Origin: Blasia pusilla
Taxonomy: Eukaryota
Direction of reading: 5' to 3'
DNA: 64,000 nucleotides
NCBI GenBank assembly: GCA_050084515.1
Contig: CM114271.1
Coordinates: 17,980,001 to 18,044,000 of the forward strand
The stretch's first letter is position 1, and the number at the start of each line of letters is the position of its first letter. The notes under the pieces are model-generated. The model worked only from the letters and a program-made list of their open reading frames with translations, was not told the origin of the DNA and ran no database searches. Position numbers and translations under genes: made by a program. Below, piece by piece: positions 40,373 to 63,047 of the stretch.

Positions 40373-41325
40373 TGCTCCAGGATAAAGGCATGATTCCACG
40401 CATGCCTTACGAGGTCTTTGGCACTTCTCTATAGCTCTCGAGTCGTACCCCACAATGGTGAAGAGGTCTTGCCAACATGGGAAGAGACACTCGCCATGGC
40501 ATGTCTCTCCGTGGGACTATCCGCTAATGGGACATCCTCCACATGTGCGTTCCCCTCCAACAACTCTCCTGGCCAGCTAACACTACTTGTGAAAGCTGCC
40601 AACGTGGTCACAGACTTGTCTCGTGATCGACCACCTTGTCCCGTAAATTGCACGGGTGACTGATTCATCCGGCTGTCACCTGACCACCAGCCGATGAGCA
40701 ATGGTCTTCTCCCAGAAGTCAAGGATGAATCCTAGGGGATATAACACTGTACTCCCCACCAACACATTGTACGACTCAGTTGGTGTCGTAATCACATGTG
40801 CGCACCATAGCACTATCCGTTGCATGCCCTGGCTGGACTCTGACAACTATCTCCTGTCGAGTCATATACTGTGTGGGTGATACGCCCACAATCGAGGTCT
40901 GTATGTGGAAGGGACAAGGCTCAATGTCGGCCTTCCGTAACCCCAACGCTAAACACGACGCCTTCCCTAACATCAAGGGTTGTGCTCCCAAATCAAGTAG
41001 GACGCGCTACGGATGGTATACTGTTCTCATCCGACTAACCAAGCGAAATACTCCAACTCGTTTATCCAGTAACACTACTCCAGGTGTCACCACTGCTCGC
41101 TCTATGGCTGGTCGAGTTGGCATATCTACCAACTTTGTCGCCGCCACATGCCATGACTCTGTGGGGGACGTCCCGAGCATCGGCTCTAAGGCCAAGTCCA
41201 CCACCTCCTCAACTACCTCTGAACAAGAAGCAGTTACCTCTCCACGCTCACACAATGTGGTGGCCAGCCGGAACACCTCAGCTGGTCCAACTCCCAACGT
41301 CGCCAACTCTATGGCGGAAAATAGC
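40373..41325 (-). pseudogene. Host element H: aspartic protease and linker region
   Basis: Collinear with 45940-46889 of copy C; VLLD(L)GAQPLMLGK protease motif, interrupted by a stop. Confidence 0.85.
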
Positions 41326-41539
41326 TGTCGTGCGCATACATATCGCTACACAACATACATCGCTGGTCACATCTACACCACACAACACCGATCTTCCCCA
41401 CACACGGGTCGATCCACACATGTACAAAAATAAACTCATACATATACATGGAGATCACTCAACCGCCCCCCTAGCTGGCACTTGGATCCCTCCAACTCCA
41501 GATAGAAAATATCACATCTCTCTGACATGACCTACAACC

Positions 41540-43056
41540 CTATACACATCTCGGACACATCCATCGTCCCGTGGGAACCACATCAAGAGGGGGGGGTCAG
41601 ACATGACATATGCCATCCTCTAGAACAACCATCACATACCAACATGGTGGCTGCACCCCTCGCAGATCCGCACAATATACACCTCAAGCCTGCAGGTACC
41701 ACTGCCAAGCTTGGATCCACCATCCCATCTACGTTCGGAAGATGACATGGCGCACAATTGCGCACATGATCCTTCCAAACCATACCATCTCGTCCCTCCA
41801 ACATGAGGACTCCGGTCGGTAATACCTCGCGCACACGTAGGATCGTGCGCCCTGCAGTGACATCTAGCGTCGTGGGTGCCGCCTGCTGTAAATACACGTA
41901 ATCTCCAGGATGAAACCTCCTAATCCCTGGACGATAACCTCCTCCACAAATGGTCGCGTACCTCAATGTATCTCTATGCTGGGCAATAGCTAAGTTCTCA
42001 AAGGCCATAGGCATAACTCTACGAAAAACTTCTGCCCTCTGAGAACATGCTTGCACCCACACATCTGGATCATCAAGATCTAACACCTCCGCCATGTCAC
42101 GTCGAATCGCTGCAGGTAAATCTGGCTCTCTCCCAAAGAGCAAAAAGTACGGTGAAAATGACGCCAAGGATGCCTGCCGACTAAAGCGATAACCCATAGC
42201 CAACCATGGCAACTGTAGGTCCCACTCCCTCAACTGTCCTCGCTGCAAGCCATACTTGCGCAATCCTCTCTTCACCGTCTGTACCACTCTCTCCGCCAAT
42301 CCATCCGCCTCAGGATGATCCCTGGACGTGGTGCGCTGATCTATTAGCGCCTGATCACACAAGGCCTGAAACTCTCCCATGAACTCGGTACCCTGGTCAG
42401 TCAACACCTCCGCCGGTGCACCAAAGTGACTAAGCACACGATCTAGAAACGCATAAGCTAATCCCTCGCTCGCCTTGTCTGGTAGTGCCACCAACTCTAT
42501 CCACTTGGAGAAATGCTCCACCATGACCAACACGTACCTATGATGACGCCCTGTCAATGGCAAAGGTCCCGCAAAGTCTAAACTCCACCGATAACCTAAA
42601 CCCATAATCGGCAAAGGATGTGACTGCGGAGTGGGAGCATTGAAGGATGCTCGCACTCTGTCACATACCATACATCCGCCACAAACTCTGTACCCTCAAG
42701 TATGCATGCCGCCACCAATATCTGAACTGGAGTAAGCTGTAAGTACGCTTTACTGCGAAATGTCCCAACTCCTCATGGGCATGTCGCACTACACGTGCTC
42801 GCTGGGAAGGATGAGGTACCACTCGTATCCTACCATCTCCCCATACCCGCAAAATGTGAGTCCCCTCCCACATGAACCTCTTGGCTCTCTGTAGGATCCG
42901 ATCTCGCTCCCTAGCACTCACTGTACTCGCAATGACGCCAGTGCGCAAGAAGTCCACAACCTCCACGTCGTCATGGATATCACGACCACCTGTCGCCTCC
43001 TCACTAACCTCCGGATCCAAAGACTCATCATCCAACCCCACCATTGGAGTCATCAC
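41540..43056 (-). CDS. Copy C integrase (HHCC + DDE core) with C-terminal PHD finger; frameshifted
   Basis: AHEELGHF...C..C; DFAGP / TDQG / AERVVQT catalytic triad; CILCGSARGAATMLVCDGCSRGWHMSCLTPP(L)..VPTGRWMCPRC (C4HC3). Confidence 0.9.
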
Positions 43057-43199
43057 CTATGGCTGACCTACCATAGTCAACCAACAAAGATAGGCAGATG
43101 CATGCCAACCGGGCACCATCTCCTCATCACTCTCTCCGTGCCATCGAGCTCCCGTGACGTCTCTCTGACTCGGACATGGGTTATGACTCAACCCATCCG

Positions 43200-44500
43200 C
43201 ATCCTGGTTCAGCCGATCTGGCCTATGAACCACCTCAAACTCATACTCCTATAGTAATAGAGCCCACCTGGCAAGCTTTCCCGTAAGCTTGTCGGACTCC
43301 ATCAACCACTTCAACGGCTGATGATCAGTGATAAGTGTGAAAGGGTTGCCAAATAAATAGCACCTAAAATGTGCCACGGCCCACACTGCAGACCAAGCAC
43401 TCTCCCTCATAGAGTGCCCGCCTCTGCAATGTTGTTCGATCGACTCGCGTAAGCCACAACGAACTCCCTCTCCTCGTCATCCCTCTGAGTAAGCATTGCT
43501 CCTAGACCCAACATGCTCCAATCCGTATGTAACTGGAATGGGCGACCCCTAACCGGTCTCTGTAAAATGGGTGAGGACGTCAACTTTGTCCCTGAGCTCA
43601 TGAAATGCTCGCTCTCGATCATCTCCCCACAACCACACTGATCAAGTTTGTCAACAAGGTCAAAGACTTTGCGATCGCACTAAAACCCTTGACATAAGTC
43701 GAGAAGTTCGCCACCCAAGAAATGCTTGGACTCGACTCACATCTGTAGGGCGTGGAATCTGCGCAATAGCCTCTACCTTCGTCTGCTGAACGCCTAACCC
43801 AATCGGGTATATGGTGTGTCCCAAGTACTCAATCTGCTCCTAAAAGAATCTGCACTTGCCTGGATGTAACTTTAGTCCATGTAACTGCAATCGCCGAAAC
43901 ACCTCCTCCAAGTGTCGCTCATGCTCCTCAACCGTGGAAGTGAAGATAAGAATATCATCTATGTAACATCGTACAAAATCCAAGCCAGCCAAAATCCTAT
44001 CCATCACTCTCTGAAACTCCGGAGGCGCGTTCTTCAACCCAAATGGTAAGAACCGCCACTGATACAAGCAATCTCTCCCGAACCGATCTATCCCCCAGAA
44101 TGTTGTCTTCTCCCTGTCCTCCAACCTGATAGGAAGCTGATGATAGCCAACATGGAGATCTAAAGTACTGAAGATCTTTGCATGCCCTACCGCATCAAAG
44201 ATCTCTCAGAGTAGGCATGGCATACCGATCGACTCTCAAATGCATCGGTTGATAGGACGGTAATCTCCACACATCCGCCTATCCGTCCAATTGCCATACA
44301 TATCCTTCTTCGCGGCATGACTGCGTGGCGGATGCATACTCCCCATGTGACAACTCCACAAGTCCCGCCTCCAACAAGTCATGACTCTGCTCGAATCAAG
44401 GCTCGCTCCATATCAGAATACTGTAGGGTCGACGAAAGATCGGCGTATCACTAGCCAACTCAATCCGTATCCGGGACCCTTCAGCGTACCCAAGTCTCTC
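43200..44500 (-). CDS. Copy C reverse transcriptase and RNase H; many 1-nt indels
   Basis: RMCGDYRPIN, LPFGLKNAPPEFQR, YIDD, KC.FF, HTDWS, VVAYASR, TDHQPL. Confidence 0.9.
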
Positions 44501-44899
44501 ATCATCAAGGCAAAACAACCGACATGCCCTCTACGGAAACCTATGAACTCGCCGTCGCTCTCCTCCTATCAACTTGAGACCTATCACAGGCTCCCAAGTC
44601 TCCATCGTGACCTCACTCGGAGAGGGCGCAACCTCGGCTTTGGTTGCTATGTAGCAACCCTAGCCACCTCATGACCACTCCACTCGACCTCCTACACCAT
44701 GCTCCACATCCGAAAAATGAACATGTGCTACTCTAGCCGCCTTCGCACTCTCTCGCTCGAACGACGCGTCGGGAAGTCCATGGGTGCCTATCTCTCCTCG
44801 TCTCGCCTTTGACCAATGCTCAGACCACCGTCAGAGGCGTGGTCCAACTCGTGGGCGTGACGGCATGGATGACACTCGCATCCGTCTCGCCACCATACC

Positions 44900-45850
44900 T
44901 GGTGACTATCCATGTGAGACAGTTGAGGTCCATCGCTTTGCCCTAACACTGTCTCCGTGATGCCTCGGTCATCCTCGGCACCGCCGTGGTACCGTAGTGA
45001 ACCCCATGGCGCTCGCGCTCATCTCGCTGTAGGCTCCTCCAATACTCCGCTCACCTCATCCCAAATCATGCCTGGTCCTCCTCGACAAAAGGCATGGGAT
45101 CTTTGGAAGCTCACCAACGAGGTAAGGCTGCCCTCAACTCCCCCACCCTATTGGCCGTGACCAACGGTGGTCTATCATCGCGTGTCACCACCTGAGATCG
45201 ACGCCCTCAGTCCAAAATAGCATCCACCGTGAGATGCGATGCTCTCTAGACTCCACTGTAGGCTCGACTCAGTACCTCTGATGGTATCAGGTTTGTCCAC
45301 CACAGTCGTAGACGATGGGCACGTGACCCAACTCTCGCTGCATCTAACAACACAGCCGGTCCCAACCAGGACCTCACCTGATGTACACTCGTCATCACAC
45401 GTGCACGAGTATCTCCCAACAACAACACGTTCTCCAAAATGTACGCAGGAGAACATATCTGACTCTGCTGCAAGTGTCGTACTACTCGCAGCATCTCCCA
45501 AAACATCCCTGACCTCGGATCTTGCAATCCAAATCCTCGGCCAGATGATGAATGACCCTGACATGGCCATCGAGCAATCACCAAATGAATGGTGCCAACT
45601 CTATCCAGATCCTGCGCCCCCACCAAAGATATGTCGACGGGTAGCGTATCTTTGGTATCCCGTCATCGAGATATCGACAACAACTCAGGATACCTCTTGA
45701 CCAATCTCGCCACGTGACGTAATGATACTCGCCGCGCGGTCTCATCTCTCTCCACATAAAGGTATTGATGCACCCGTATGCCCGCCTGCAATACTGCAGC
45801 CAATCCGGTGCTAATCCCTCCAAAGAGATCTAACACCCTAACACCCTCCT
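44900..45850 (-). CDS. Copy C DNMT3-like C5 cytosine methyltransferase domain between protease and RT; frameshifted
   Basis: Motif I VRVLDLFGGISTGL, II YLYVE, IV LVIARWPCQG, VI YILENV, VIII DAARVGSRAHRLRLWWTNL, X LGQ(A)MDLN, in canonical I-X order. Confidence 0.9.
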
Positions 45851-46289
45851 CTGGGCACTGCCACACAACATGTGTGGTATCTAGTGGGGTCATCGTCTCC
45901 ACTCCAAGAGCCCGATCGCCACGTGACTCTCTGCTGCCTGGGATAAAAACATGACTCCACGCTTGCCTCACGAGGTCGTCGGCACTCCTCTCTGTAGCTC
46001 TCAGTCGTGCCCCATAATGGTGAAGAGGCATCGCTAACATGGGAAGAGACACCCGCCATGGCCTGTCTCTCCGTGGGACTATCCGCTCTTTGGGACATCC
46101 TCCGCATGTGCGTTCCCCTCCAACAACTCTCTGGCCGCCTAACACTACCGTGAAAGCCGCCAACGTGGTCAGACTCGCCTCGTGATCGACCATCTCGCCC
46201 CCAAATCGCACGGGTAATCGACTCATCCGACCGTCACCTGACCGCCATCCTGGCCGATAAGCAACGGTCTCCTCCCAGAAGTCAGGATG

Positions 46290-48750
46290 AATCTAGGGGA
46301 TATAACACTGTACTCCCCACCAACACATCGTACGACTCAGCTGGTGTCGTAATCGCACGTGTGGCGCACCATAGCACTATCCGTCGCATGCTCTGGCTGG
46401 ACTCTGACAACAATCTCCTGTCGAGTCATATACTGAGTGGGTGATACGCCCCCAATCGAGGTCTGTATCTGGAAGGGACAAGGCTCAATGTCGGCCTTCC
46501 GTAACCCCAACGCTAAACACGCCGCCTTCCCTAACATCAAGGGTTGCGCTCCCGAATCAAGTAGGACGCGCTGCGGGTGGTATACTGTCCCCGTCGGACT
46601 AACCAAGCGAAATACTCCAGCTCGGTTATCCAGTAACACTACTCCAGGTGTCACCACTGCTCGCTCTATGGCCGGTCGAGCTGGCATATCTACCAACTTC
46701 GCCGCCGCCGCATGCCATGACTCTGTGGGGAACGTCCCAAGCACCGGCTCTGAGGGCAAGTCCACCACCTCCTCAACTACCTCTGAACAAGAAGCAGTCA
46801 TCTCTCCACGCTCACACAACGTGGCGGCCAACCGGAACACCTCAGCTGGTCCAACCCCCAACGTCGCCAACTCTAAGGCGGAAAATAGCGGAGTCTGACT
46901 CACTCTAGTGGCCACCTCCAACATCAGAGTCGACACCGACTCACTCGAGCCGGTATAGGAGTTGTCACTCCAACTCTCATGACGCCGGCGTAGGTGCTCG
47001 ATATGTAGGCACCGCTGGTCGTCGAGGCACCATCGATGGTGTGTGTAGTGCCTCCGACAATGTGAACGACTGTGGAACCCTGGCCTGCCGCCCATCGGTC
47101 CCCTCTGGTGGGTCAATCTCAACTCCACCTCTTGATGGCTCGGTGCCTCTCGCAGCACCCCGAGTCACCACTGCAGCTGCCTCAACGTGGGCTGCACTAC
47201 ACATGAATCCCATATTGAGAGATCTCACCCAGTCGGGTAAGAGGTAGAGGCCGAGTCACACTGTGGCCGCTCGCGACTCCGTGCCTTCCTAAGCCGCATC
47301 ATCGTCATGGCGGCAATCCTCGCTCCAACCGATTGATGCGTGAGAGAAGTGCCGGCTCTGGTGCTCCTGCTCCATCTCCTCTGGCTGGTGGTGGTCCTCT
47401 ACCACCACGTCCAGGAAGAACTCCCCGACCTCCTCCAGGACGACCGCCCCCAGGCCCTCGGCCTACCTCTGGACGTGCCCCTCGGCGAAGGTCAAAACAT
47501 CTATCCCTAGTATGACCATATCTGTGGCAATGGTCACACTGTGTCCGTGGGTGGGGCCATCCTCTGGGCTCTGCGCAATCGAGGCGCTGGTGGTCCTCTC
47601 CCATGCTGTGGGCAGTCTCTCTGCCTATGGGCCTCTCCACACGTCCAACAAGACCCCATCGGTCCCTGTTGGGCAACATATGTAGGTGCAGGTCGTTGCC
47701 TCATAGGCTCACGGTACCCGCCCTGCTCTCTAGGCACACTGGCCCGCTCCCGTGGTACTGGTGCTCGCTGTGGCACCGGTGGGGTCACCGCCGCTCGTGG
47801 ACCCGTCGACTCTCGAGAAAATCCAGCGGTCACTACCTGCTCCTCACTCATGTTGATCTCAATATGCTCAGACAACTCAAAGACCACCTTCAATGTGGGC
47901 TTCTTTGTGTGAATCTGCACCGCATCTTGGACTCTCCTCCGTAGTTCTCGGTCCAGAACCCCATACCAATACTGGACTGACTGCGCCTTAGTCACTCCAA
48001 ACGTCGCAATGATCAGCCTCCTCATGCGTGTGAATGCCTCTCTCAGACTCTCACCCGATCGTCGCTGAAAATCCTGTAGACTCTTCAGCTTGTCGGTGCG
48101 TGCAGACGCCTGGTAGCTCTTTCCCAAGCGCCGGAAGAACTCCACTGTGGAGCTTAAGCTGGGTGGACCTCTACCACCAGAGGTCTCTGCCACATCGCAT
48201 GTGTCACTGTCCTCCTCTCCATCTAGTCTCCGGGCTGATGGTGTGGGTCTCTCTCCTCTCACAATCCCATCATATGCCTCGCGACCACTAGTGGACACAT
48301 ACCCTGGAGCCCAATACATCCTCCAGGCATCGATCTCTACTGAATATAGTGATCGAAACTCCATGTAGTCATCCATCGGAGGACCCTCCAAATCTTTGGA
48401 ACAACCCCTTCCATGCCATGAAAGGGTTGAACCGTGTCGGGGTCCGTATCTCCTGGAAGTCGCACCATGTGTCAAACTCCTGGATGAAATCATCTAAGTC
48501 GATGGTGCCCACTGCACCCGAGAAACGACGCATGCCCCGATGGCCCATGTCGTCCATCTCCTGCCAAGTACTACTGTCTCTTTCGGTGATCTCATCACCA
48601 GACCGAGTGTCCAATGATGACGATCCAGTCACAGATGGCTGTCGAGGTAGCTCCTCACTGGTAACCCCTCGATATCTCACTCCACTCCGTGTTACACCAC
48701 TACTACTGCTCGCACTACCCCGTTCTTCCGAACCCTGGAAGAACGCCGTG
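46290..48750 (-). CDS. Copy C gag (two CCHC knuckles) and aspartic protease; frameshifted
   Basis: RRFSGAVGTIDLDDFIQEF capsid N-terminus; CWTCGEAHRQRDC and CDHCHRYGHTRDRC; RGG-rich linker; VLLDSGAQP protease. Confidence 0.85.
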
Positions 48751-50065
48751 ATGACAAACCTTGTCTCACCCGCTCAAGCACTCAGACTCACCGAGAGTCT
48801 CCCACACGCCTCACTAGCTCACCTATGCGAACATCAATCCCGTGATGACATACCCGACCTCACGCACGCTCAACACTCGGGCTCACGATGAGCCTCCCAA
48901 CTGACTCACCTAACCTAGCGACACACTCTCGGGTCATACACGTGACCCCTACTCGGCAACCGCCGTATATCCACCAACATGCTACACATGAAAAGAATCT
49001 ACACTCGTCACCATCACTGCACCCATCTAGCACCAGCTACTACCCGATACCCAGCACTCTCAATCACACACGACAAGTGCGGGAAAAGGGACTCGAATGG
49101 GTAACCTGATCACGCCCTCCAACCTGCTGCACCGTCAATATGCACTCCTCCACATGATATGAAAATCTCCGCCACATAACACTCCCCTCGACCAACACGT
49201 CGATCCTCCCGTCAATAGATGCGGACAATCCGTCGGCATCATGCACACTGCCCCTCCAGCGTAAACTCTCGCAACGCCCTATGCGCGCCTCAAAAACAAC
49301 ATGTCACGCCCGCTGCCCAACTTGTCGATCACTCAGCACGTCGACATCCTCCCTGCCCTCACGTTGCCCATGCGCACCGCGTTCGCCGGACCGACCTCGT
49401 CCGTCCTACCACGTTAAATTCGATCGTCCGACCGCCGTCGGTGCTACCACGTTGGAAAGAGGGGAAGAACTTGGGCCGCGGCCCTATCGGCCCCTTGGGC
49501 CCTAAATGCGCTGGGGCACTGCCACTGCCCGCTGTCCGCCCGCCCCCGCCACGCGCCCTGCCGTCCGCCGTCCGCGCCCTGCCCTAAATTTCACGACCTA
49601 ACTCTAGCCGCTTTTTGATGACCCCGGCGTTGCAAGACCCAACTTGCCCGTTCCTTCTCTTTCGACGCCTTCACTTGCGTACACCCGATGCCCTACCACA
49701 CGCTACACTCATTCTTTGTCTCCCAACAATCTGCACGACAAAATCTGAGAAAACGGACAGCGCTTCCGCCCACGGCCTTCCGAACAGAAAAATGACACAA
49801 ATTGACACACACACGTCTCCAGGGGCTCCCCAACCGAGGCAACTCGCTTGCCTACCTGCAAACAACGAATTCCCACCAGCCCCCTGACATCTTTCTCATG
49901 TAAAAATAAAGAGTAGTAAAAACGACACACCCGGCCTAAAACTCCACTCCTCAATCTACATCGGCATATCGAGCCTCGTCCACCTTGTGCTATCAAGGAA
50001 TCCGGACGCTGCTGGGTCCCTAGTCCTAGCTCACACACATACAAGGGAGGTGCTCCAACGGCCCA

Positions 50066-50110
50066 ACATGAGAAAGATGGCTTAAGAAAGCCATCTTCCT
50101 CTCTTATATA
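50066..50110 (-). promoter_or_regulatory. Copy C TATA box and predicted TSS/self-primer
   Basis: TATATAA at 50110-50104 (minus). 31 nt downstream begins CATCTTTCTCATGT (50079-50066), the exact complement of 49901-49888. Confidence 0.6.
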
Positions 50111-50383
50111 GGTTGGGAAGAGCCAAAAGGCTCTTCTCCTAAAAATATCCCTTCCCTTGGTAACCTGTGTGCACAGGTTACCAAGGGCAGGTGACCTGGT
50201 CAACAAGTCACCTGGCTGTAAAAGATCTCAATATGAAAGTCGTCAGAAATGACGTTCCTGACACAATGGACCTATCCTCAACCTCATCCGACATTGTGGG
50301 ACAAAGTTACATTCAAGATAGTCCGCTGGCTCCTACGCCCTATCCACGATAGATCTCGGCCTATCGGCTACTCAGATGTGACA

Positions 50384-51972
50384 TAGCCGAGTCTGGCTCA
50401 CTCTAGTGGCCACCTCCAACACTATGGTCCACACTGACTCCACTCGAGCCAACAAAGGAGTTGTCACTCCAACTCCTCGTGACATCAACTTACGTGCCTG
50501 ACTTGTAGGCACCGGTGGTCATTGAGGCACCATCGACGGTGTGTGTAGTGCCTCTGACAATGTGCATGACTGTGGAACCCTGGCGTACCGCCCATCGGTC
50601 CCCTCATGTGGATCAATCTCAACTCCATCTCTTGATGGCTCGGTGCCTCTCACAGCACCCCGAGTCACCACTGCAGCCACCTTAACCTGAGCTGTACTAC
50701 ACATAAACCCTATACTAGCGAGATCCTCACTCGGGTCAGGATAAGAGATAGAAGCTGAAGCCACACTAGCTGCTCGCGGCTCCGTGCCTTCCTTGAGCTG
50801 CATCGTCGTCATGGCAGCAATCCTCTACTCCAATTGATCGATGCGTGCGAGAAGTGTCGGCTCTAGTGCTCATGCTCCATCTCCTCTGGCTGGTGGTGGT
50901 CCTCTACCACCACGTCCAGGAAGAACTCCCTGACCTCCTCCAGGACAATCGTCCCCAAACCCTCGGCTTAGCTGTGGACGTGCCTCTTGACGAAGGTCAA
51001 AAAATCTATCCCTAGTGGACCATATCTATGGCAATAGTCACACTAGTACTGTGGTGGGGCCATCCTCTGTGGCTCTTTAGTAATCGGAGCCGCTCGTGGT
51101 CCTCTCCCATTTTGTGTGCAGTCTCTCTGCCTATGGGCCCCTCCACACGTCCAACAAGATAACATCGGTCCCTGTTGGGCAACATATGTAGGTATGGGTT
51201 GTTGCCTCATAGGCTCACGGTACCCACCCTGCTCTCTAGGCACACTCGCCTTCCCGCGGTACTGGTGCTCGTTGTGGCACCTGTGGGATCACTGTGGCTC
51301 GTGGACCTATCGACTCTCGAGAAAATCTAGCGGCCACTACCTGCTCCTCACTCATGTTGAGCTCAGACAACTCAAAGACCACCTTCAATGTGGGCTTCTT
51401 TGTGTGAATCTGCACCGCATCTTAGACTCTCCTCCGTAGTTCTTGGTCCAGAACCCCGTACCAATACTGGATTGACTGCGCCTCAGTCACTCCATACGTA
51501 GCAATGATAAGCCTCGTCATGGGTGCGAATGCCTCTCTCAAACTCTCACCCAATCATCGTTGAAAATCCTGTAGACTCTTCAGCTTGTCGGTGCATACGC
51601 CTTGGTAGCTCTTCCCCAACTTTCAAAAGAACTCCACTATGGGACTAAAGCTGGGTGGCCCTCTACCACCAGAGGTCTCTGCCACATCACTTGTCTTACT
51701 GCTCTCCTCTCCATCTAGTCTGCAGGCTCATGGTGTGGGTCTCTCTCCTCTCAAGATCCTATGGTATGCCTCGTGACTACTAGTGGACACATACCCTGGA
51801 GCCCAATACATCCTCCAAGCATTGATCTCTACTGAATATAGTGATCGAAACTCCATGTAATCGTCCATCAGAGGACCCTCCAAGTGTTGGAACAACCCCT
51901 TCCACGCCATGAAAGGGTTGAACCGTGTCGGGGTGCGTATCTCTTGGAAGTCGTACCACGTGTCGAACTCCT
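50384..51972 (-). pseudogene. Host element H gag, central and 3' part
   Basis: Collinear with 46886-48481 of copy C; knuckle CWTCGGAHRQRDC; in-frame stops. Confidence 0.85.
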
Positions 51973-52918
51973 TGTTGTGCACATATACATCGTTACACAA
52001 CATACATCGCTGTCACCGAACACACACACAAACACGCATGATCCCATGCTAACTCATGGCATCCAAACAACGAGACAAGAAGTACTAACATATCTCCAAT
52101 AAAGTAAGATCCAATCTCTCTCTACACCATCTCACACCATAGCTCTCAAAGGTGTGCACTCTCCCTCATGTCAAACCAAACCCACTCTCCTAATGAAAGG
52201 CTTGGGTTACACTCACAAGGCAAGGGACCATAGCTCCGCCGTCTCATGCCAAAAGGTTCAACAAAGAGAGAATGAGCTCTCAAGCTCTCTCTCCTTGAGG
52301 TATGCCCTCCCCTCTCCCAAGCCCTCTCCATGGTGACCTATTCTCCCAAGTCACCTCCTTGGCTCTTGACTTGATGTAGGAGGTCAAGGGCCACTTACCA
52401 AAAATAGAAAGTCGATCGTATATTCAAGATGGTACTTACCTAAAATAGTAAGTTCCTCAATATGGCTCCAAATGAGCCGAAACGAAGGGGAAACCTGCTC
52501 TCTCAGGTTTCCCGGGGCCTCAGCAAGTCATCCTCGACCTACTAAGCGTGTCCTCCACTACTCACAAAAGCGCTCTACTAGATCTCACTGATTTATCCTA
52601 AAAGACGTGATAGTTGTCGTGCGCATACACATCGCTACACAACATACATCGTTGTCATCGAACACACGCACGATCCCATGGTAACTCATGGCATCCAAAC
52701 AACGAGACAAGAAGTACTAAAATATCTCCAATCGCCCCCCTAGCTGGTGGTTAGGGCTCTCTAACTCCTCATAGCCATCTATCCCTACCTAACATAACAT
52801 ACATCTCTCGGACGCTAAGAGCAAGAAGGTCGGGTGCTCATGTGGCTCCATCGTTAGTCGCCTTCCTGTCATCCATATCACAGAAAAAATTGGAATCAAA
52901 ACCTACCTAGTATCTCCT

Positions 52919-55700
52919 CTATGTACATCTTGGATACATCCATCGTCCCCGAGGAACCCTAATGAGAGGTGGCATAAGACATGCCATATGCCAACCTCTC
53001 GAACATCCATCACAGACTAGCATCGTGGCCGCACCACGGGCAGAACCACACAACATACAACGCAAGCTTGTAGGAACTACTACTAAGCTCAAATCTACTT
53101 TACCATCAATGTTAGGAAGGTGACATGGCGCACAATTATGCACATGGTCCTTCCATACCATACCATCGCGTCCCTCCAAGAAGAGAACACCGGATGGCTA
53201 AACGTCACGCACTCTCAGGATAGTGCGCCCTGCAGTCACATCCAACATCATCGGTGCCGTCTGCTGCAAGTAGACATAATCTCCCTGATGAAACCTCCGG
53301 ATAGTTGGTCGATAACCACTACCCCGAATAGTCGCATACCTCAACGTATCTTGATGCTGCGTAATCGCCAAGTTCTCGAACGCCATGGGCATCACTCTCC
53401 GAAATAACTCAGCCCTCCGAGAACATGCTCGCATCCATACATCTAGGTTATCAAGGTCCAGCACCTCACCAGCATCTCGACGAATGGCCGCAGATAAATC
53501 TGGCTCTCGGCCATAAAGTAGCAAGTACGGTGAAAAAGACGCTAAGGATGCCTGCCTACTGAATCTGTATCCCATCGCCAAGCAGGGAAACTGGAGGTCC
53601 CAATCTCCTAGGTGACCTCTCTGCAAGCCATACTTGCGTAAACCCCTCTTCATCGTCTGCACAACTCTCTCCGCTAATCCATCCGCCTCAGGATGATCTC
53701 GCGAAGTCGTGCGATGGTCAATCAGCGCTAGATCACACAAGGCCTGGAACTCACCACAAAACTTGGTACCCTGGTCTATCAACACCTCAGCCGATGTGCC
53801 ATAATGACTCAACACTCTGTCAAGGAAGGCATAAGCTACTCTCTCACTCGCTTTGTCAAGCAATGCAACCAACTCACCACGAAACTTGGTACCCTGGTCT
53901 ATCAACACCTCAGCCGATGTGCCATAATGACTCAACACTCTATGAAGGAAGGCATAAGCTACTCTCTCACTCGCTTTGTCAAGCAATGCAACCAACTCAC
54001 CACGAAACTTGGTACCCTGGTCTATCAACACCTCAGCCGATGTGCCATAATGACTCAACACTCTGTCAAGGAAGGCATAAGCTACTCCCTCACTCGCTTT
54101 GTGAGGCGATGCAACCAACTCGATCCACTTCGAGAAGTGCTCATAACGACTGTGACGCTCCGTCAAAGGCAAAGGTCATGCAAAATCCAAACTCCATCTA
54201 TACCCTAAGCCCTTGATCGGTTATGGATGCAACTATGGAGTCGGACTCCTCATCCTCGCACCAACTTCTCATCACTCTCTCCATGCCATCGAGCTCCAAT
54301 TGCATCTCGCTGACTCGGACATGGATTACAACTCAACCCATCTGCATCCTCGTTGAGCATCCCAGGTCTATGTACCACCTGAAAATCATACTCCTGCAAC
54401 AACATAGCCTATCTCGCAAGCTTCCCTGTATGCTTGTCGGACTCCATCAACCACTTCAGTGGTTGATGATCAGTGATGATGGTAAAGGGATTGCCGAATA
54501 AGTAACACCTAAAATGCGCGACAGCCCACACCGCAGCCAAGCACTCACCCTCATATGAGCTATACTTTGTCTCTGCAGCATTGTTTGAGCGGCTAGCGTA
54601 AGCCACCACAAACTCTCTACCCTTATCATCATGCTCGGTGAGCACTGCTCCAAGCCCCACCATGCTCCAATCTGTGTGCAAGTGGAAAGGACGCCCCTTG
54701 ATTTTGGTCTCCTCAAAATGGGCGCGAATGTCAACTTGTCCTTGAGGAAGTAAAATGATCGCTCCTGCTCATTCCCCCAGTGCCACTCATAATCCACCTT
54801 GGTCAGCAAGATCAACGGCTTCGCAATCGAAGTGAATCCCTTGACGTACCACCGATAGAAGTTTGCCAATCCCATGACTGCGCGAACACGGCTCACATCT
54901 GTAGGACGTGGAATGTGTGAGATAGCCTCTACCTTTGTCTGTTGAACACCAAGGCCCCCTGGGTATACTGTATGACCCAAGTACTCAATCTCGTCGTAGA
55001 AGAACTTGCACTTGCCTAGATGTAGCTTCAGCCCATGTAATTGCAATCGTCGAAATACCTCCTCTAGATGTCGCTCATGCTCCTCAACTGTGGTGCTAAA
55101 GACTACGATGTCATCCATATAACAACTAAAAAATCCAGACCAGCCAAGATCATATCCATGACCCTCTGAAACTCAACCGAGCCGTTCTTTAACCCAAATG
55201 GTAAGAACCGTCATTGGTACAAATAATCCTTCCCGTGAGGATCGATGCCCCAAAATGCCGTCTTCTACCTCTCCTCTAATCTGATAGGCAGCTGATGGTA
55301 TCCGGCTCGCAAATACAATGAACTAAAAACCTTTGCATGACCAATCGCATCAATGATCTCCTCAGGGGTGGGCATGGCATACCTATCGGACTTTGTTTGC
55401 CGATTGATAGGTCGGTAATCCCCACACATCCGTCTATCCGTCCAGTTGCCATGCACATCCTTCTTGGCGGGCATGATAGTGGCAGATGCATACTTCCCAT
55501 GCGACATCTCCACTAGTCCTGCTCCAACCAAGTCTTGGATCCTACTCTGAATCAGAGCCCTCTCCATATCACTGTACCTGCAGGGTTGTCAAAAGATCGG
55601 CGTATCACTCGACAACTCAATGCGGATCCCCGGCCCCTTCAGCGTACCCAAATCCTCCATGCTAAATGCACAACAACTCCTATAACTCTTGAGGAACTGA
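52919..55700 (-). pseudogene. Copy D RT - RNase H - integrase - PHD; HHCC region deleted, 123-bp triplication in the core
   Basis: RMCGDYRPIN, YMDD, TDWS, TDHQPL, AERVVQT, CMLCGSARGAATMLVCDGCSRGWHMACL. RNase H joins directly to TPxLHP at ~54245. Confidence 0.85.
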
Positions 55701-56104
55701 CGTATTCGACGCCGCTCTCCTCTTGTCAACTTAGGGCCCATATCTGGCTCCCAAGTCTCCATTGTGACTACAGTAGGACTGTTTGGCGCGGATATCAGTG
55801 GTTGCTATGGTGCAACCCCGTCTCGAACAACAACACTCGACCGCTCTCCTGCAGCCAACTGCAAACTCTGATCTCCTCCACATGCACTGCCCGGAACCAC
55901 GCTTGATGTTGTGGCTATCATCTCCTCGCGTACCTGCAAAACATCCCAAGAAGTCCAAGGGTATCTCTCTCGATCTCCCTTGGTGTGTCGATCTCCTCGG
56001 GTCTCGCCCCCAGCCACTGCCTCCATCGTCTCGGTAGGCATGGGGCTCACCAACGCAACCGCTGTGATCTGTCCTCATCTCATCCGACGCTGCTGAGCCA
56101 GTCC

Positions 56105-57085
56105 CAAGCTGAAGATCCATGTCAAGGAGTTTAGGTCCATCGCCTGACCTAAGACATGGCGTGGTGATGCCTCTCACATTGACGATACTGCCGTCACTCC
56201 TATGGAAAATCCCATCGCCTGCTCTCTCTCGTCGGGGTTGGGCTCCACCAACCTCTGAACGTGGTCATCCCAAACCAAGCTAGGACCGGCCTCCTTGTAT
56301 GCATAGGAAGCGAGAAAACTCACAAACGTGGGAAAGGCTGCCCGCAGCTTGCCTACCCTGTTGATCACACTCAACGGTGGTCGATCATCGTGCCTCACTT
56401 CCTGTGAGCAACAACCTAGATCCAGAATGGAATCCACTAACAAATGGAGGGGCGCTCCACTCTTGCATACACCCTCCGTAACATAACATCGGGCACCAAG
56501 TTGGTCCACCATAGACACGGGCGATGGGCTTTAGAACCTACACTTTCCGCATCCAAGAACACTGCTGGGCCAATCCAGGCACGCACCTGATGAGCACTCG
56601 TCACCACCCGTGACCTGGAGTCTCCTAAGATCGGCACATTCTCCAGAATGTAGGCTGGAGAACGAGACTAGTGCTCCTGCAACTGTTGTAAGATTATCTC
56701 TTTGTAAAGTAAGATCCTCAAAATCTCCCAAAACAACGTGGACCAAGTGTCAGCCAACCCGCTGCCTCGTCCAACACTCGATTGGCCTTGACATGGCCTA
56801 CCGGCAATGACCAAATCAATGGTGCCTAATCGGTCTAAGTCCTGCGCCCCTAGCAACGAAATATCCCTCGGTAGGGAATTCTGGTACCCCTGTACCGCCC
56901 ACGCAGACAATAAGTCGGGAAAACGTAGGCGTAACTATGCCACATATCGTAGTGAGACGCACCTTGCAACATCATCACTCTCCACATACAGGTACTGTTG
57001 CACTCGCACTTCTGCGTGCAAAATAGCAGCTAACTCGGTGCTAATCCCTCCAAAGAGATCTAACACTCGAATACCCTCCTCCGGG
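56105..57085 (-). CDS. Copy D DNMT3-like C5 cytosine methyltransferase domain; degenerate
   Basis: IRVLDLFGGISTEL, YLYVE, IDLVIAGRPCQG, LENVPILGD, DAESVGSKAHRPCLWWTNL, EPNPDEREQAMGF, RHVLGQAMDLNSLTWIF. Confidence 0.9.
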
Positions 57086-57499
57086 GTACACCACACAATG
57101 GGTGTGGTATCCAAGGGTGTCATCATAGTAGTCCTTGCTACCTCAGGTTCCACAGACCCCTCATGCTCCGGTGCAAACGCCTCGCTCCACGCGGTTAGCA
57201 CGTGCTCATTTGCCAATCGTCGAAGCTCCTCAGTCGAGCCCCACAGCGGCACATGTCCTCCACGGAATGATGCGACTACCATAACATTCCTCCCCATAGA
57301 AATTTTAGGAATGGGAGTATCCTCTGCATGGACATGTCCCTCGATCAAATCACTAGGCCAAGTGATGGGACTGCTAAATGCTGCTAAGGTCGCCATCTCT
57401 TATGGCCGTTGCTCGATCACTGCACATGAGAATCGAACGGGTAATGAGCTAAGGTGCCCATCACCTGACTGCCATCCTGGTATATAGGACGCTGACTCT

Positions 57500-59828
57500 T
57501 CCCATTAGTCCAGGGAAAACCCCATCGGATATAACACTGCTCCACCAACCAAGATGTTGTAGGACTCTGCATCAGTCACTATCGCCTTATCTCGCACCAC
57601 GGACTCATCTGTAGGATGTTCCAAGCAAATTCTCACCACGACCTCCTGTCGGGTGATATATTGTGTGGTACTTGCTCCACCCCAGGATGTCTATATCCGG
57701 AATGGACAACGCTCCACATCGGCTCTCGTCAAGCCCAATCCTCTGAATGACGCTTTCCCCAACATCAGGGGTTGTGCTCCTGAATGCAACAAGACGCGCT
57801 GCGGACTAAAAGCTCTACCTCCGGGACTCACCAACTGGAAGACCTCTCCTCGATGATCCAGCAACACAACACCAGGAGAAGCCATGGCACGCTCTATCGC
57901 GGGTCTAGCGGGCATCTCCACCATCCTAGCAGCCACAGCCTGCCATGAATCTGACATGGACGGCCCGAGCATCCGCTCCAAGGGCAGGTCCATCACCTCC
58001 TCTATAATCACCTCTCAATGTGATGCAAGAACTCCAACTCTACACTCACATAGCGTAGTGGCCAGCCGAAAAGCCTCGGCGGGCGTACCCCCCAACGTCA
58101 TAACATCGGAAGAAGAAAATAAAAGAGCGTGGTACACAATGGTGGCCGCCCCCAACAACGTGCTCGACACATGCCCCTCTTGAGCATTAACAATAGGAAT
58201 CATCACACTTGCTTCTCCCATCGCCCTCCGTGCCTGCACACCAATAACATTACCAACTCTCCACGAACTCTGATCAAGACCCATCGATGGGGTCCTCATC
58301 GCCTCGGACAACGTGAAAGACTGAGGAAGCCTAGTCTGTTTCCTGGCTTCCCCTCATTGTGGATCCACCTGTGCGGTTGCTCCACGTGTCACAACTGCGG
58401 CTGCCTCCATGTGGGCAACCCCGCACATCCAACCAGGATCCTCCATATCTCTAGCAGCTCCATATGATGTCGATGCCATGGATGCGGCATCGGGTAATCT
58501 CAATGCCATAGCGGCAATCTGCTCTTGTAGCTGATGTATTTGAGCTGCCATCCTAGTCTCATGCTCGGCATCACCCTCGACGCGTCTAGGTGGTAGGACT
58601 CTACCTCCTCCACGGGAAGCTCCACCACCCTGTCGGGCAACTCCAACTCCTTGTCCCCTAACGGGACCACCTGGTGCACGATCTCTAGGCCCACCCAGAC
58701 CGGCTACTCGCTGTAGTACCCTCTGTGGCCCTAGGTCCAAACATAACTCAGGATGTAAATTGAAACACCTGGCACGTGTATGACCATACCTCTGACAATA
58801 TTCACAGTGATAACCTCCTGGTGTAGCACCATCTCCTCCTCCATGTTGAGGCACATGTCCATGACCCTGACCAGTGCAATCGCACTGATGATGGGCTCCA
58901 TGACCAACAAGTAATAGTAGGCGGCTGCTGCTGAGCCGCATATGAAGGCGCAGGTCTCTGTGGCACGGCCTCCCGGTATCCTCCTTGAGCTTGTGGTGCC
59001 ACAGTCAACCTATCTCGGAGTCCATCTTATTGCACAGGTAGTGCAGACAATCGTGACTGCTCTCACCTAGAACCCATGGTGGCTACGCTCTCCTCCACCA
59101 TGTTGCGCTCAATGTTCTTGGCGGTCCTAAAAACATCTCTCAACGTAGGGGAGGTGTTCATAAGAAGCATCCCTCCCGCACTCGTGTCCGCAGGGTCCGA
59201 TCCAACATCGCGTACCATGACTAGATAGCCTGAGTCTCTATCATCCCTTGAGTGACGTTGATCAACCGGCGCAAGCGAGTGTAAGCCTCACGCAAACTCT
59301 CACCCGGGCGCCTCTGGAAATCATGGATGCTCCGCAACTTCTCAGTCCGTACCCCCTAGTAGCTCGCCCTCAACTTAGCAAAGAACTCAACCACATGGTT
59401 GAACCTCGGACGAACCCGACTAGACGGTGCAACTGCTCCCGTGCAAGTGACCCCTCCTAAAATGTCACTAGTGGAAGAGAAAGTAGCCTCTCTTGACTCC
59501 TCCTCCTTATCTGGGAACGGCTCCGTCCATGACACATAATGTGGGTCATAGTATGTGTATGGGCCTCCACGCCTCAATTTCACGTGCATATCTCTGAGAG
59601 AACTCATGGTAATCGTCCATGGGCCCCCTCTAAATGCTGGAACATACCGTTCCATGCTGTAAACGGGTTGAACTCTCTAGAGTTCCTGGCCCATTGGGAG
59701 TCGCACCAACTCCTAAACTCTGCTATGAAATCGTGTAACTCAATCGTGCCTACTGCACTTGAAAACCTACGCGGTCCTCTACCCCGATCGTCCATCTCGT
59801 ACGCCCAATTGGTTTGAGATGTGCTCAC
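57500..59828 (-). pseudogene. Copy D gag and protease
   Basis: RRFSSAVGTIELHDFIAEF; CWSWSPSS (decayed knuckle); CEYCQRYGHTRARC; VLLHSGAQP (catalytic D changed to H). Confidence 0.8.
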
Positions 59829-60974
59829 AATGTAGGACCACTCACAATGTGTGGTGATGTGCTCACAAACTCCTCTACATGCTCCCCCTTGTTTGAAGAC
59901 AACACAGAAGGAGATCGAGGTGATCTCTCACGTGGAGACCCACAAAAACTCGCACCACTCTAGATAAACCCTCCAGACCTACTCTCAGGTCCACTACCTT
60001 GCCACTCAAAATCCTGAAAGGACGCCGTGGTGGCCCTCGTGCCCCTCTCACACGATTACTCTCAACCTCGCGAGTAATCCCTCAATCACTCATCCCAAAC
60101 ATGCGGCACTCGATCTACACTCTCCCTCCACGAGACGTGTAACGTGCGGCAACAAGTGGCGTGGTGCGGAAAATCGACTAGACTATCATCTCATCGACAA
60201 CCTACCCTCAACTCCGGACATCCCACACAGGTCTATGTCCCCTAAACCACATACATAAATGATGCTCTCAACATCCACACACCCAATATCCCCAAATAAA
60301 CTACCCAAATCCCATAATCCCTCACACGTGCAGGGTAAGGGAGCAGAATGGGTAACCTGAACACATGTCGATGTCGCTCCTCAGCAACTGCAAATCTCGA
60401 CCCCAACTCGGTCGTGGAGACAAATCCTCCAATCAGCAAGTCATACTCCTCCCGTATTGACGCAGCTTAAAACTCCTTGATGGACAGTGCGGTTCCAGCG
60501 GAACAGTGCGGCGTTGCATGCGGCACAGAACAACTACAAACGGCACGGCCCTCGATGGTGGGATGTGGCACTCGACGGCATATCCTCCTCAATCAACAAT
60601 AAACCCACACTCTGCTCCACAATGATGGTGCGGCTCCACGATCAAGACGATGCGGTGCGGCCACGAGTGGCACGGCAATCGGCGGCGTGTTGCGGCTACG
60701 GGCATCACAGCACGGTACTCGATCATCATCCAGTGGCTACCAACCACAACATAGCACCATGAAATCAAAACTCAAACACCATAACCGAAGGTCATCTACC
60801 ATTAGTGGTTGATGACAAAACTGCGATGATGGTGGCGGCCAAACCAATGTACGTGGTGGCGGCGCAAGTCAAAGAATCAACGGTGGTCGTGGAAGACCCT
60901 CTACTTCGTAATGGCGGCAATGGTAGCCAAAGGGTGGAAAACGGCCAAATGCAGCTCTGAGCAATGGTGGGCAA

Positions 60975-61140
60975 CGGCAACGGCCGACGGTGACCGGTGG
61001 ACCGTGGACCGTTGACGGTGACGGTGATGGTTGACCGTTGATGGTGACAACGGACCGTTGACTCTGAAGGTTGACCATTGACGGTGATGGTTGACCGTTG
61101 ATTGGTGACGGTGACTATGACGGCGACGGCCGTTGCCGGC
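60975..61140. repeat. Degenerate GTTGACCGTTGACGGTGACGGTGATG-type minisatellite in D's leader
   Basis: Repeated GACCGTTGA / GACGGTGA units. Confidence 0.65.
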
Positions 61141-61828
61141 GTGGCGGCTGGTTTAGGGTTTCAACAATTTAACCCTAAAAATTGCCTAGCAATGGAAATT
61201 TTGCAAGATTGACCATAACTTTTTACTCGCAACTCCAAATTGCGCACTGTTTTTGCACAATGTGCAGAGCTTCACGATCTACAACAGTGTCAAAAAATAT
61301 TTAGAATTACAAATTCCTGTAAAAATTGACGGGGACTCTTGTAAAGCCCAATATCTCTTTCTCCTGCACAAAATTCGGCAGCGCTTCCGCGCTGATTTCT
61401 CCCAACCAAAATGTAAAACCTATAAAAATACAAATCAGCAAGCTACATGGTGCTCTCGAGACCACCGGTATGGGGCAACCCGCCCCCATGATCAATCCCT
61501 ATCAGAAATTGGGCAGCGCTTCCGCGTGCCACACTTCCACAAAAAAAATTGGGAAATGCAAAGAACAATCAAAGCAGCCCTTGCTCCGGTGAGCACTCCC
61601 ATGAGCCGTTGAACGGGGAACAAGGTCCCCAACCTGCAAAAACAACGAGTGACCAGCGAGCTCCCCCATGAAGCTCTCTCACTCTCTCATTCTCTCTTTG
61701 TTAAGTAAGATCCAATCTCTCTCTACACCATCTCACACCATAGCTCTCAAAGGTGTGCACTCTCTCTCATGTCAAACCAAACCCACTCTCCTAATGAGAG
61801 GCTTGGGTTACACTCACAAGGCAAGGTA

Positions 61829-62560
61829 CCATGTCGTCCATCTCCTGCCAAGTCATATTGCCTCTGTCTTCGATCTCGTCACCAGACCCGGTATCTAGTG
61901 ATGACGATCTAGCCACGGATGGATGTCGAGGTAGCTCCTCACTTGTAACCCCTCGGTATCTCACTCCACTCCGTGTCACACCACTTCTATTGCTCGCACT
62001 ACCATATTCTTCCGAACCCTTTAACAACGCCGTGATGACAACCCTATCTCACCCGCTCAAGCACTCAAACTCACCGAGAGTCTCCCACACTCCTCACTAG
62101 CTCACCGACGCTAATGATAATCCCGTGACGACACACCCGGCCTCACGCACACTCAACACTCGGGCTCACCACAAGCCTCCCACCTAACTCACCTCAACCA
62201 TTGACACCCTCGGGTCATACACGCCACCCCTACCCGGAAACCGCCGTATATATACCAATATGCTACACAAGAAAGGAGTCTACACTCGTCACCATAACTA
62301 CAACCATCTAGCACCTGCTACTACCCGACCCAACACCCTCAATGACACGAGAAAATTGTAGGAAAAGGGACTCGAATGAGTAACCTGATCACGCCCACCA
62401 TCAACCTATTGCATGGTCAACCCTCATTCCTCCATGTGACACGATGACCTCCGCTGCACAACCATCTCCTCGCATAGCAAGTCGATCCTCCCATCAATAG
62501 ATACATACAACTTGTGGGCATCATGCGCACTAACACTCCATCGTCAACTCTGCCCCGCAA
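61829..62560 (-). mobile_element. Host element H: gag 5' end and leader, truncated
   Basis: Collinear with 48545-49270 of copy C (GVTRSGVRYRGVTSEELPR). Joined to D's Y1 through CCAT microhomology. Confidence 0.85.
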
Positions 62561-62858: not shown

Positions 62859-63047
62859 TTACTCCCAACCTTGAGAATAAACAAGAGGTAGTTGAGCCAT
62901 GCCACCTACGAGAACCACCAATCTTATAAGGAATACATTAAGACTGTTGCATGGCCTACTCTCTTTGAGATGTATATCTATGATCTGTAGTATCCGAGGT
63001 GTTAGCATGGAAAACTCATCCACAAAAATAATATTTGCATTTTTCAA
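62859..63047 (-). pseudogene. PIF1-like (Helitron-type) helicase fragment
   Basis: IIFVDEFSML (motif II) and VVLVGGMAQLPLV (decayed GDxxQLPPV, motif III). Confidence 0.6.

Follow-up and report, generated by a model that had tools for sequence, protein, structure and literature searches.

Split direct repeats and 4-bp target site duplications in a DNMT3-bearing Ty3/gypsy family of Blasia pusilla, with a possible integration site inside the long terminal repeat

By the textbook account, integration of long terminal repeat (LTR) retrotransposons and of retroviruses proceeds through the ends of a linear complementary DNA (cDNA). How, then, are we to read elements that carry a DDE integrase and lack identical LTRs at their ends? 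The question is raised by a 64,000-nucleotide (nt) stretch of Blasia pusilla DNA (contig CM114271.1 of assembly GCA_050084515.1, positions 17,980,001 to 18,044,000), hereafter the window. Between 34.9 and 62.6 kb of the window, self-comparison and Pfam scans delimited a nest of three decayed Ty3/gypsy copies, here termed H, C and D, coding for DNMT3-like, reverse transcriptase (RT), RNase H, DDE-integrase and PHD domains, none of which (0/3) is bounded by two identical LTRs. All elements lie on the minus strand, and features are given in plus-strand numbering of the whole window. With moderate confidence, we propose that the integrated form of this family is a circular permutation of the reverse-transcription product and that its integrase uses an internal palindrome instead of the cDNA ends.

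Copy C (41326–50383) reads Y-internal-PPT-X, where PPT is the polypurine tract and Y and X are the segments called A and B, respectively, in the related loci described below. Segment Y, of 482 base pairs (bp; 49902–50383), starts with TGTCACATC at 50383 and contains a TATATAA motif (50104–50110) and a primer-like motif (50067–50079), its inner end being backed by joints at 49901–49903 in reads of the species. Directly after it, a putative self-priming primer binding site (PBS), CATGAGAAAGATG (49888–49900), is complementary to the primer-like motif. At the opposite end, the polypurine tract GCTAGGGGGGCGG (41463–41475) is followed by segment X (41326–41462), ending in GCGCACGACA at 41326. The copy is flanked on both sides by GCTA (50384–50387, the 5' target site duplication (TSD) copy, and 41322–41325, the 3' copy), and C's own homologous stretch (around 46885–46889) has a single, uninterrupted GCTA and represents a paralogous empty site. 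An earlier annotation made from the letters of this stretch alone, hereafter the original prediction, had described C precisely in these terms, as Y-internal-X with no terminal direct repeat and a clean 4-bp TSD. The comparison of C's X with C's 5' region that it had proposed was performed by local alignment and retrieved no repeat: against the 5' 1384 bases of C the local score was 24, compared with a mean of 20.1 (standard deviation 2.3, maximum 30) in 200 shuffles. A cryptic X/Y similarity in C was thus ruled out, the score falling within the shuffle range.

The 3' end of copy D reads PPT-X1-AC-Y2-X2-AGGA. In detail, the polypurine tract GCTAGGGGGGCGA (52732–52744) is followed by X1 (52615–52731), ending in GCGCACGACA, by a 2-nt spacer AC (52613–52614) at the centre of a palindromic junction, by Y2 (511 bp, 52102–52612), which starts with TATCAC and carries a primer-like motif at 52260–52276, and by X2 (51973–52099), ending in GTGCACAACA. 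The adjoining AGGA (51969–51972) is the 3' TSD copy of the D-lineage insertion; the corresponding position in C shows AGGA just once. The partner of this duplication is AAGA at 40313–40316, far from the rest of the copy, where a displaced 5' junction (40158–40316) joins AAGA to ~155 bp from the start of a D-lineage Y, which opens with TGTCACATC and is 91% identical to Y2. Across 40158–40371 the H-lineage sequence thus ends in AAGA, then TGTCACATC follows, and 2.4 kb of unrelated transcribed DNA adjoins. In place, the 5' side of D retains a putative self-priming PBS, AACAAAGAGAGAATGAG (61686–61702), complementary to the Y2 motif, and a truncated Y1 (61703–61828; the last ~130–150 bp of Y) fused to H-lineage sequence via an ATGG microhomology (61829–61832). 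Since the 5' Y is truncated and the matching junction is displaced at 40316–40304, D has no intact 5' end in place, and either D is rearranged or this part of the window is misassembled. Of the original description of D as Y-internal-X-AC-Y-X, therefore, the 3' portion stood and the complete 5' Y did not. The two repeat pairs are 85% (X1/X2, over 129 bp) and 93% (Y1/Y2, over 151 bp) identical. As also foreseen, a polypurine tract (core GGGGGGCGG) directly precedes X in H, C and D; the X 3' end is GCGCAC(G/C)ACA, occurring as GCGCACGACA in C and in X1 of D, and as GCGCACCACA in H.

The coding content was examined by Pfam scan of the minus-strand frames of at least 60 amino acids between 30 and 64 kb (103 frames) and of the plus-strand frames of at least 70 amino acids between 34 and 64 kb (70 frames). 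Stops and frameshifts are present in all three copies. The order methyltransferase, RT, RNase H, integrase (H2C2 and rve), PHD was found in C and D and, partially, in H. In C, a cytosine-5 DNA methyltransferase fragment (45249–45662) is followed by RT and RNase H (43252–44205) and by the integrase with its H2C2 zinc finger, an rve core retaining D, D, 35, E, and a C-terminal PHD finger (41586–43056). The pol of D (52922–56934), broken by stops, includes the DNMT (56671–56934), RNase H/RT (54412–55172), integrase core (53201–54175) and PHD (52922–53197) regions. RVT_1, RT_RNaseH_2, RT_RNaseH, Integrase_H2C2 and rve were matched in that order in C, D, the related loci L013 and L064 and the relative P0149, an intact polyprotein of 2811 amino acids with the same overall domain order. 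Matches to PF00145 lie upstream of RT in C, D, L013, L064, P0012 and P0149; L013 and L064 share the entire DNMT-RT-RNase H-integrase-PHD order, and a protease was found in L064. The nearest solved relatives by sequence are the RT of Ty3 Gag-Pol (E 1.4e-93), the foamy-virus PFV integrase (1.9e-17) and, for the methyltransferase part, which appears DNMT3-like, the DNMT3A/3B chains (~3e-6). The integrase residues D710, D770 and E805 (DD35E) are invariant in 12/12 aligned relatives and retained in the open reading frame (ORF) of C. No tyrosine recombinase (PF00589) was detected in the 103 minus-strand and 70 plus-strand window ORFs, in 17 plus-strand ORFs of L013 and L064, or in three polyproteins. 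Likewise, no chromodomain was matched, a PHD finger (PF00628) sitting instead at the integrase C-terminus. As a separate observation, the C-terminal region of the D integrase (53726–54121) consists of three tandem 123-bp units (90–96% identical), an in-frame triplication of 41 codons of which C and H have one each.

To what extent is this layout a property of the family? Relatives of the integrase frame are mostly metagenome proteins, the named ones being from green algae; a transcript of Coleochaete scutata, 74% identical, is the nearest match with a name. Twelve relatives were aligned and the alignment served to fetch metagenome contig DNA, and 479 pattern matches, 412 of them confirmed, led to 80 retained loci, corresponding to 55 distinct ones. 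Eighteen of these escaped classification, for want of a B segment or because the contig stops short, which leaves 37. Nineteen of the 37 read pol-PPT-B1-NN-A2(-B2), as in D, and 18 read pol-PPT-B followed by unrelated flank, as in C; a conventional LTR pair occurs in none (0/37). The expectation that only the Y..X and Y..X-NN-Y-X forms exist was hence borne out in every classifiable distinct locus. Among the ~21 distinct loci with a 5' A, no B was found beside it, as either a mirror form (A/B-NN-A-int-B, the slash marking a direct joint) or a conventional LTR would display. Both ends are available in 16 loci, nine of C type and seven of D type, with no mirror form. Within single loci, the identities of the A1/A2 and B1/B2 pairs are alike (92/94% in L013, 83/85% in L039, 84/85% in L068), indicating that both repeat pairs derive from one event. 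All fetched copies are decayed. The X and Y segments of the window gave no nucleotide-level match with the 80 loci, homology being limited to the protein level, the polypurine tract and the termini; the closest relatives, L001 and L005 (97% to P0121), end within pol and show no 3' structure. We also observed in L015 (2881–3367) an inverted B-A-B block of the L068 subfamily, at ~220 bp before the L015 element begins with its 5' end; here the 3' end of one split-repeat element lies near another element.

The integrated termini of the relatives read TGTCATG...CACGACA, that is TGTC...GACA. Next to them, perfect 4-bp TSDs were found in 9/16 distinct loci with both ends. In the D form, six of seven are perfect (GGTC, TGAC, GTGT, CCAT, CATA, CCAC) and the remaining one matches at three of four positions; in the C form, three of nine are perfect (CCAA, CATC, TCAT), three match at three of four positions and three are worse. 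Together with the GCTA of copy C, these agree with the predicted position of the TSDs, adjoining the TGTC of Y start and the GACA of X end. The A start and the B end are, moreover, the two halves of the internal junction B...GACA-NN-TGTC...A, whose spacer is exactly 2 nt in all 18 distinct loci read (AC, GC, GT or AT); it is AC in the D copy of the window and GT in a contig of the C subfamily. The termini and the TSDs place the integrase site inside the LTR and not at the cDNA ends.

The junction itself is frequently altered. A2 often begins with TATC where A1 begins with TGTC, and the variants, including this frequent TATC and GATA at the B1 end, are each one transition from the palindrome GACAGCTGTC, GACAACTATC being one such deaminated variant. 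The transitions fall on the CAG/CTG cytosines of GACAGCTGTC (window D 52607–52624; loci L007–L078). From this pattern, GACAGCTGTC, a 10-bp palindrome, appears to be the ancestral internal integration site, and the transitions would represent decay through CHG methylation, as expected in plant-type genomes. Processed retroviral ends carry a CA-3'OH with a 2-nt 5' overhang, according to established integrase chemistry. By analogy, a staggered cut after each CA of the palindrome would leave two CA-3'OH ends with 2-nt 5' overhangs.

If the integrase site is internal, where does the LTR of reverse transcription lie? The B start directly follows the G-run of the polypurine tract in every copy read. 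At the other side, A is immediately followed by 12–17 bases that can pair with a motif within A. In copy C, CATGAGAAAGATG pairs with the motif located 31 nt after TATATAA; in copy D, AACAAAGAGAGAATGAG pairs with the motif at 52260–52276; and in the L013 family, TCTAGAAAAACT pairs with AGTTTTTCTAGA, at about position 165 of A and 32 nt after TATAAAA. A complementary stretch of 10–17 nt starting at most 2 nt from the A end is present in 11/21 copies, a result reached by 0–2 of 300 shuffles, and the TATA motif, where found, is 31–33 nt upstream of the primer-like motif. Inspection by eye found no tRNA-type PBS (TGG...) beside A. Retrotransposons of the Tf1 group prime reverse transcription from their own RNA. 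Window C, window D and the L013 family have three unrelated sequence pairs in this one position, which is compensatory evidence for self-priming, and the stretch abutting the A end, in register in those 11 copies and differing between three subfamilies, is accordingly regarded as a putative Tf1-like PBS. With the polypurine tract abutting B, a self-primer-type PBS abutting the A end and TATA inside A, the reverse-transcription LTR corresponds to B-NN-A, in accordance with the X-AC-Y originally suggested. Transcription would thereby start inside A, with U5 ending at the A end and U3 starting at the B start. RNA reads of the species are consistent with this, within their coarse resolution: they are strongly strand-biased, sense RNA is present, and reads continue from the Y end into the PBS. 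In 667-base bins, RNA depth was 104–162 in the bin with X1 and Y2 versus 4–6 in the bin with X2, X1/X2 cross-mapping being possible.

Unlike the fixed 2-nt spacer, the A2/B2 joint varies between insertions of one family. In 13 distinct loci, the joint is precise in five (...TTCAAT/ATACATG...), short by two bases in two, at an AT/AT overlap (A ending and B starting with AT), expanded by 3–6 additional nt in three and accompanied by B2 5' deletions in two; in the last one, B2 starts 137 nt upstream of the polypurine tract. As for this unusual B, L039 (12887–13200 and 13516–13820; same in L037) has a B of 314 bp instead of the usual ~177 bp, its B2 taking in 137 bp of the pol 3' end, as if the plus-strand start or the joint fell further upstream. 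The joint variants do not track the pol tree, which is star-like for these copies. A joint that differs between insertions independently of the tree points to a junction made anew at each cycle by the joining of cDNA termini, and not to a templated one. DNA contigs of Blasia pusilla show the same behaviour: the Y end (49901–49903) is joined to the X start at 41454, 41457, 41458, 41460, 41462 and 41463, in at least seven variants, some with inserted letters. Split-repeat joints are present in two independent DNA runs of the species, and one contig set reads X-GT-Y. The Y/X joint therefore behaves, both in the 13 loci and in the species reads, as the end-joined cDNA junction implied by the LTR and circle geometry of the original prediction. 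Contigs of one run additionally join 52119–52120, at the end of Y, to 56716–56717, in pol near the DNMT domain, which suggests that other sites in the genome harbour D-subfamily derivatives with internal deletions, hence non-autonomous.

How could such copies be produced? In the mechanism that we propose, transcription would start inside A, ~31 nt after the TATA box, the first 12–17 nt of the RNA would fold back on the PBS directly after A, in a Tf1-type self-priming, and plus strands would start at the polypurine tract directly before B. The product would be an ordinary linear cDNA carrying B-NN-A as its LTR at either end. The DDE integrase would then use the inverted pair GACA-NN-TGTC inside the LTR, leaving the cDNA termini unused. 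The replication-competent form A-int-B-NN-A/B, corresponding to D, would arise when the cDNA termini join and the PBS-side palindrome gives both ends; the A/B joint would be newly made in each cycle (A end to B start), either through formation of a 2-LTR circle or through repair once the two halves of the PBS-side palindrome are both integrated. The form A-int-B, corresponding to C, would result from use of the palindromes of both LTRs, or from a later B1 x B2 recombination; the latter route, X1 x X2 in the naming of the window, was already allowed for in the original prediction. Lacking a 3' R, the C form would be a dead end. The D form, being the only permutation that combines integrase ends with a full U3-R at the RNA 3' end, would be the one that persists.

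Several observations weigh against this proposal. No cDNA form, linear or circular, was observed. The absence of the mirror form (0 against 7 D) implies that integration is asymmetric and demands a one-sided route; it may be that the left palindrome is cleaved while the cDNA is still linear and the ends are joined once integration has occurred, or that the polymerase jumps back and adds B to the right end alone. The D copy of the window is rearranged at its 5' end, and the contig pieces listed from the species reads were too short to confirm the junctions specific to the window (41325/6, 50383/4, 51972/3, 61828/9, 40158 and 37720) or to show them to be misassembled. Most joints in reads have sides of 20–24 letters, two variants only reaching 45 or more. 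All examined copies are old and broken, so some of the A/B joint variation may be post-insertion decay. Complementarity in the canonical register is missing in 10/21 copies, eight having none significant, which we assume to be due to decay, and two having it at another offset. The RNA bins of 667 bases are too coarse to place the 5' or 3' ends of the RNA. Finally, the 80 metagenome loci come from few metagenome series and three subfamilies, which limits their independence.

A first alternative takes circles with one or two LTRs as the substrates of integration and has them open at the internal CA-NN-TG, a 1-LTR circle giving C and a 2-LTR circle giving D, with neither palindrome of the 2-LTR circle preferred. 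Its geometry matches both forms, the A/B joint resembles a 2-LTR circle junction, and retroviral integrases are reported to cut palindromic LTR-LTR junctions (PMC1180852, PMC1905944). Random opening predicts, however, the mirror form as often as D, and none was counted among the ~21 distinct loci that have a 5' A, the D forms with both ends numbering 7 (8 with the D copy of the window added); nor were circles observed. We regard this model, in its symmetric version, as unlikely. Of the circle-opening model contained in the original prediction, the geometry of the C and D forms and the internal attachment (att) site were thus retained, and the random opening of 2-LTR circles was disfavoured.

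A second alternative dispenses with end-joining. At the right end, the plus strand, having reached the end of A, would jump back on its minus-strand template to where B starts and recopy B and more, and the integrase would trim the product at the outermost att sites, a jump giving D and no jump giving C. Such a back-jump is one-sided by construction and so accounts for the absence of the mirror form; joints with AT/AT microhomology, with few extra nt, or located 137 nt upstream of the polypurine tract would be expected of the template jumps that this model ascribes to the polymerase. Host end-joining, on the other hand, predicts the same spectrum of joints, no copy with two extra rounds (B-NN-A/B-NN-A/B) occurs among the D loci, and the back-jump is pure conjecture. 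We consider it improbable as well.

Could the family instead replicate as DIRS, PAT or Ngaro elements do, with the B1-A2 junction as a bridging template that restores the transcript ends or closes a circle, and with a DDE integrase in place of the tyrosine recombinase? PMC8969392 and the figure legend of PMC5890265 treat A1-int-B1-A2-B2 as the layout by which split-direct-repeat DIRS elements are diagnosed, and it is displayed by the D copy of the window and by 19 distinct related loci. A polypurine tract exactly at the B start and a putative, primer-complementary PBS exactly at the A end nevertheless suit ordinary LTR-type strand transfers, no tyrosine recombinase was found in the scanned ORFs, a templated bridge would not give a variable A/B joint, and TSDs are present here, DIRS elements being described without them in PMC8969392. 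This reading is therefore very unlikely. The reading of an ordinary LTR element whose split repeats derive from nesting, adjacent solo LTRs or misassembly, which finds some ground in the rearranged state of the window (D 5' end displaced, H interrupted), is hardly tenable and, as a general explanation, is excluded by the 19 independent loci in which B1-2 nt-A2-B2 recurs, in at least three subfamilies and in other assemblies, with matching TSDs at A start and B end, similar ages of the A and B pairs, and joints in reads of two independent DNA runs.

With Ty3/gypsy elements, including the Tf1 group, the family shares the protease-RT-RNase H-integrase order of Pol, an RT nearest to that of Ty3, the DD35E integrase, the polypurine tract, TG...CA termini, a 4-bp TSD and, putatively, a PBS complementary to the presumed 5' end of its own RNA. 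It differs in the lack of identical end LTRs (in the 37 classifiable loci as in the three window copies), in integrase sites lying inside the reverse-transcription LTR, in a DNMT placed before RT and, as regards chromoviruses, in a PHD finger where a chromodomain would be expected. With PAT-like DIRS and Ngaro elements it shares the A1-internal-B1-A2-B2 layout, readable as a permuted 2-LTR unit. Those elements, however, have their own tyrosine recombinase and no TSD, according to PMC8969392, whereas the family in the window has a DD35E integrase with H2C2 finger, 4-bp TSDs and TG..CA termini. The nearest biochemical precedent comes from the integrases of foamy virus and HIV-1, which are reported to cleave palindromic 2-LTR junctions (PMC1180852, PMC1905944), and in which a DDE integrase likewise acts on a head-to-head CA..TG within continuous DNA. 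There, the palindrome derives from joined cDNA ends and serves a side route; here, it is encoded in every LTR, inherited through RNA and apparently the sole site.

The split-repeat layout of DNMT3-bearing Gypsy elements is already in print. KnitGypsy-Dnmt3 of Klebsormidium nitens (de Mendoza et al. 2018, PMC5890265) is described in the legend of Fig. 4c as having the repeat structure of a DIRS retrotransposon and Gypsy domains. It has the same architecture as the window elements, a DNMT3-like domain within Gypsy Pol together with DIRS-like repeats, and by this likeness of architecture they belong to a recorded kind; section 9 and the legend of that paper give no TSDs, PBS/PPT mapping, att site or mechanism. 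In the open full-text literature (supplements, subscription journals and Repbase lying outside the search), we found no account of TSDs, of PPT, PBS and promoter mapping, of self-priming complementarity, of a palindromic site, of a variable A/B joint or of a mechanism, and no further paper on a DDE-integrase element with split direct repeats. A 2026 preprint, as far as consulted, mentions streptophyte Gypsy-DNMT3 elements without treating their repeats. New here are the self-priming complementarity, the internal palindromic integration site and the insertion-variable A/B joint. Two further candidates as precedents were rejected: REM1, whose descriptions in other papers, in the parts seen, do not point to a split-repeat layout, and Chlamydomonas Gypsy-7a_cRei, for which the legend speaks of 'LTR subparts' and the text has one LTR on the left and another on the right.

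The remainder of the nest belongs to the older H lineage, which is the host of the C and D-lineage insertions (41326–50383 and 51973–61828) and survives in five pieces (34936–37720, 40313–40371, 40380–41325, 50388–51968 and 61829–62551). Its segment X (34936–35072) ends in GCGCACCACA and is followed by unrelated flank, a C-type 3' end; it is preceded by the polypurine tract GGTAGGGGGGCGG (35073–35085) and by the internal 3' part with RT, RNase H and integrase fragments (35086–37720), 90% identical to C 41326–44087. The piece at 40380–41325 is equivalent to C 45941–46889, its final four bases being the 3' TSD copy of C. The internal piece between the insertions C and D (50388–51968) is 87% identical to C 46885–48481, and a gag-region piece (61829–62551) is 82% identical to C 48545–49269.

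In place of the H stretch equivalent to C 44087–45941, 2.4 kb at 37721–40157 are unrelated to the elements, with a GC skew opposite to that of the surrounding DNA. Forty-two RNA reads ending at 40158 run on into another sequence; as this is uniform and different, 37721–40157 would be a displaced piece of some transcribed locus. An additional, older retroelement fragment lies at 31267–31519 (69% match to the D RT region, 55317–55569). Just past the last H-lineage piece, weak PIF1-like helicase and AAA_19 matches (62862–63050, minus strand; E 0.003–0.009) may represent a Helitron-type remnant or chance. Elsewhere in the window, a long open frame on the minus strand (6981–8675) encodes a KH-domain protein whose sole match at E <= 1e-10 is a protein of the liverwort Calypogeia fissa (36% identity), and the AT-rich left half contains short tandem duplications (4745–4980, 6192–6393, 10742–11116 and 21340–21743) with units of ~58–250 bp, 84–96% identical.

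What, finally, does this locus mean for the family? The layout extends to a broad clade, and its mechanism is now testable. Two rules are broken together in many independent insertions, where a DIRS-like layout coexists with a DD35E integrase, TG..CA ends and 4-bp TSDs. It is conceivable, and we advance it tentatively, that in an entire green-lineage clade of Ty3/gypsy the integrase sites shifted away from the ends of the cDNA and came to lie in a palindrome within the LTR, so that a DDE integrase obligatorily integrates a permuted, end-joined substrate of the circle-junction type. If so, the split-direct-repeat architecture would not be tied to tyrosine recombinases, the elements would connect Ty3/gypsy with DIRS/Ngaro/PAT, either as a living link or as a convergent twin, and the idea of a circle junction as integration substrate would hold in a natural system. 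They offer a natural and widespread test case, both for a DDE integrase on an internal, circle-junction-like site and for the origin of DIRS-type architectures. The family is highly repeated in reads of Blasia pusilla, and LTR finders and transposable element classifiers will mis-bound or misfile these abundant elements. They also bring their own DNMT3-like enzyme and PHD finger, and the palindromic att core carries CHG sites that decay in old copies, which would link the integrity of the integration site to host methylation.

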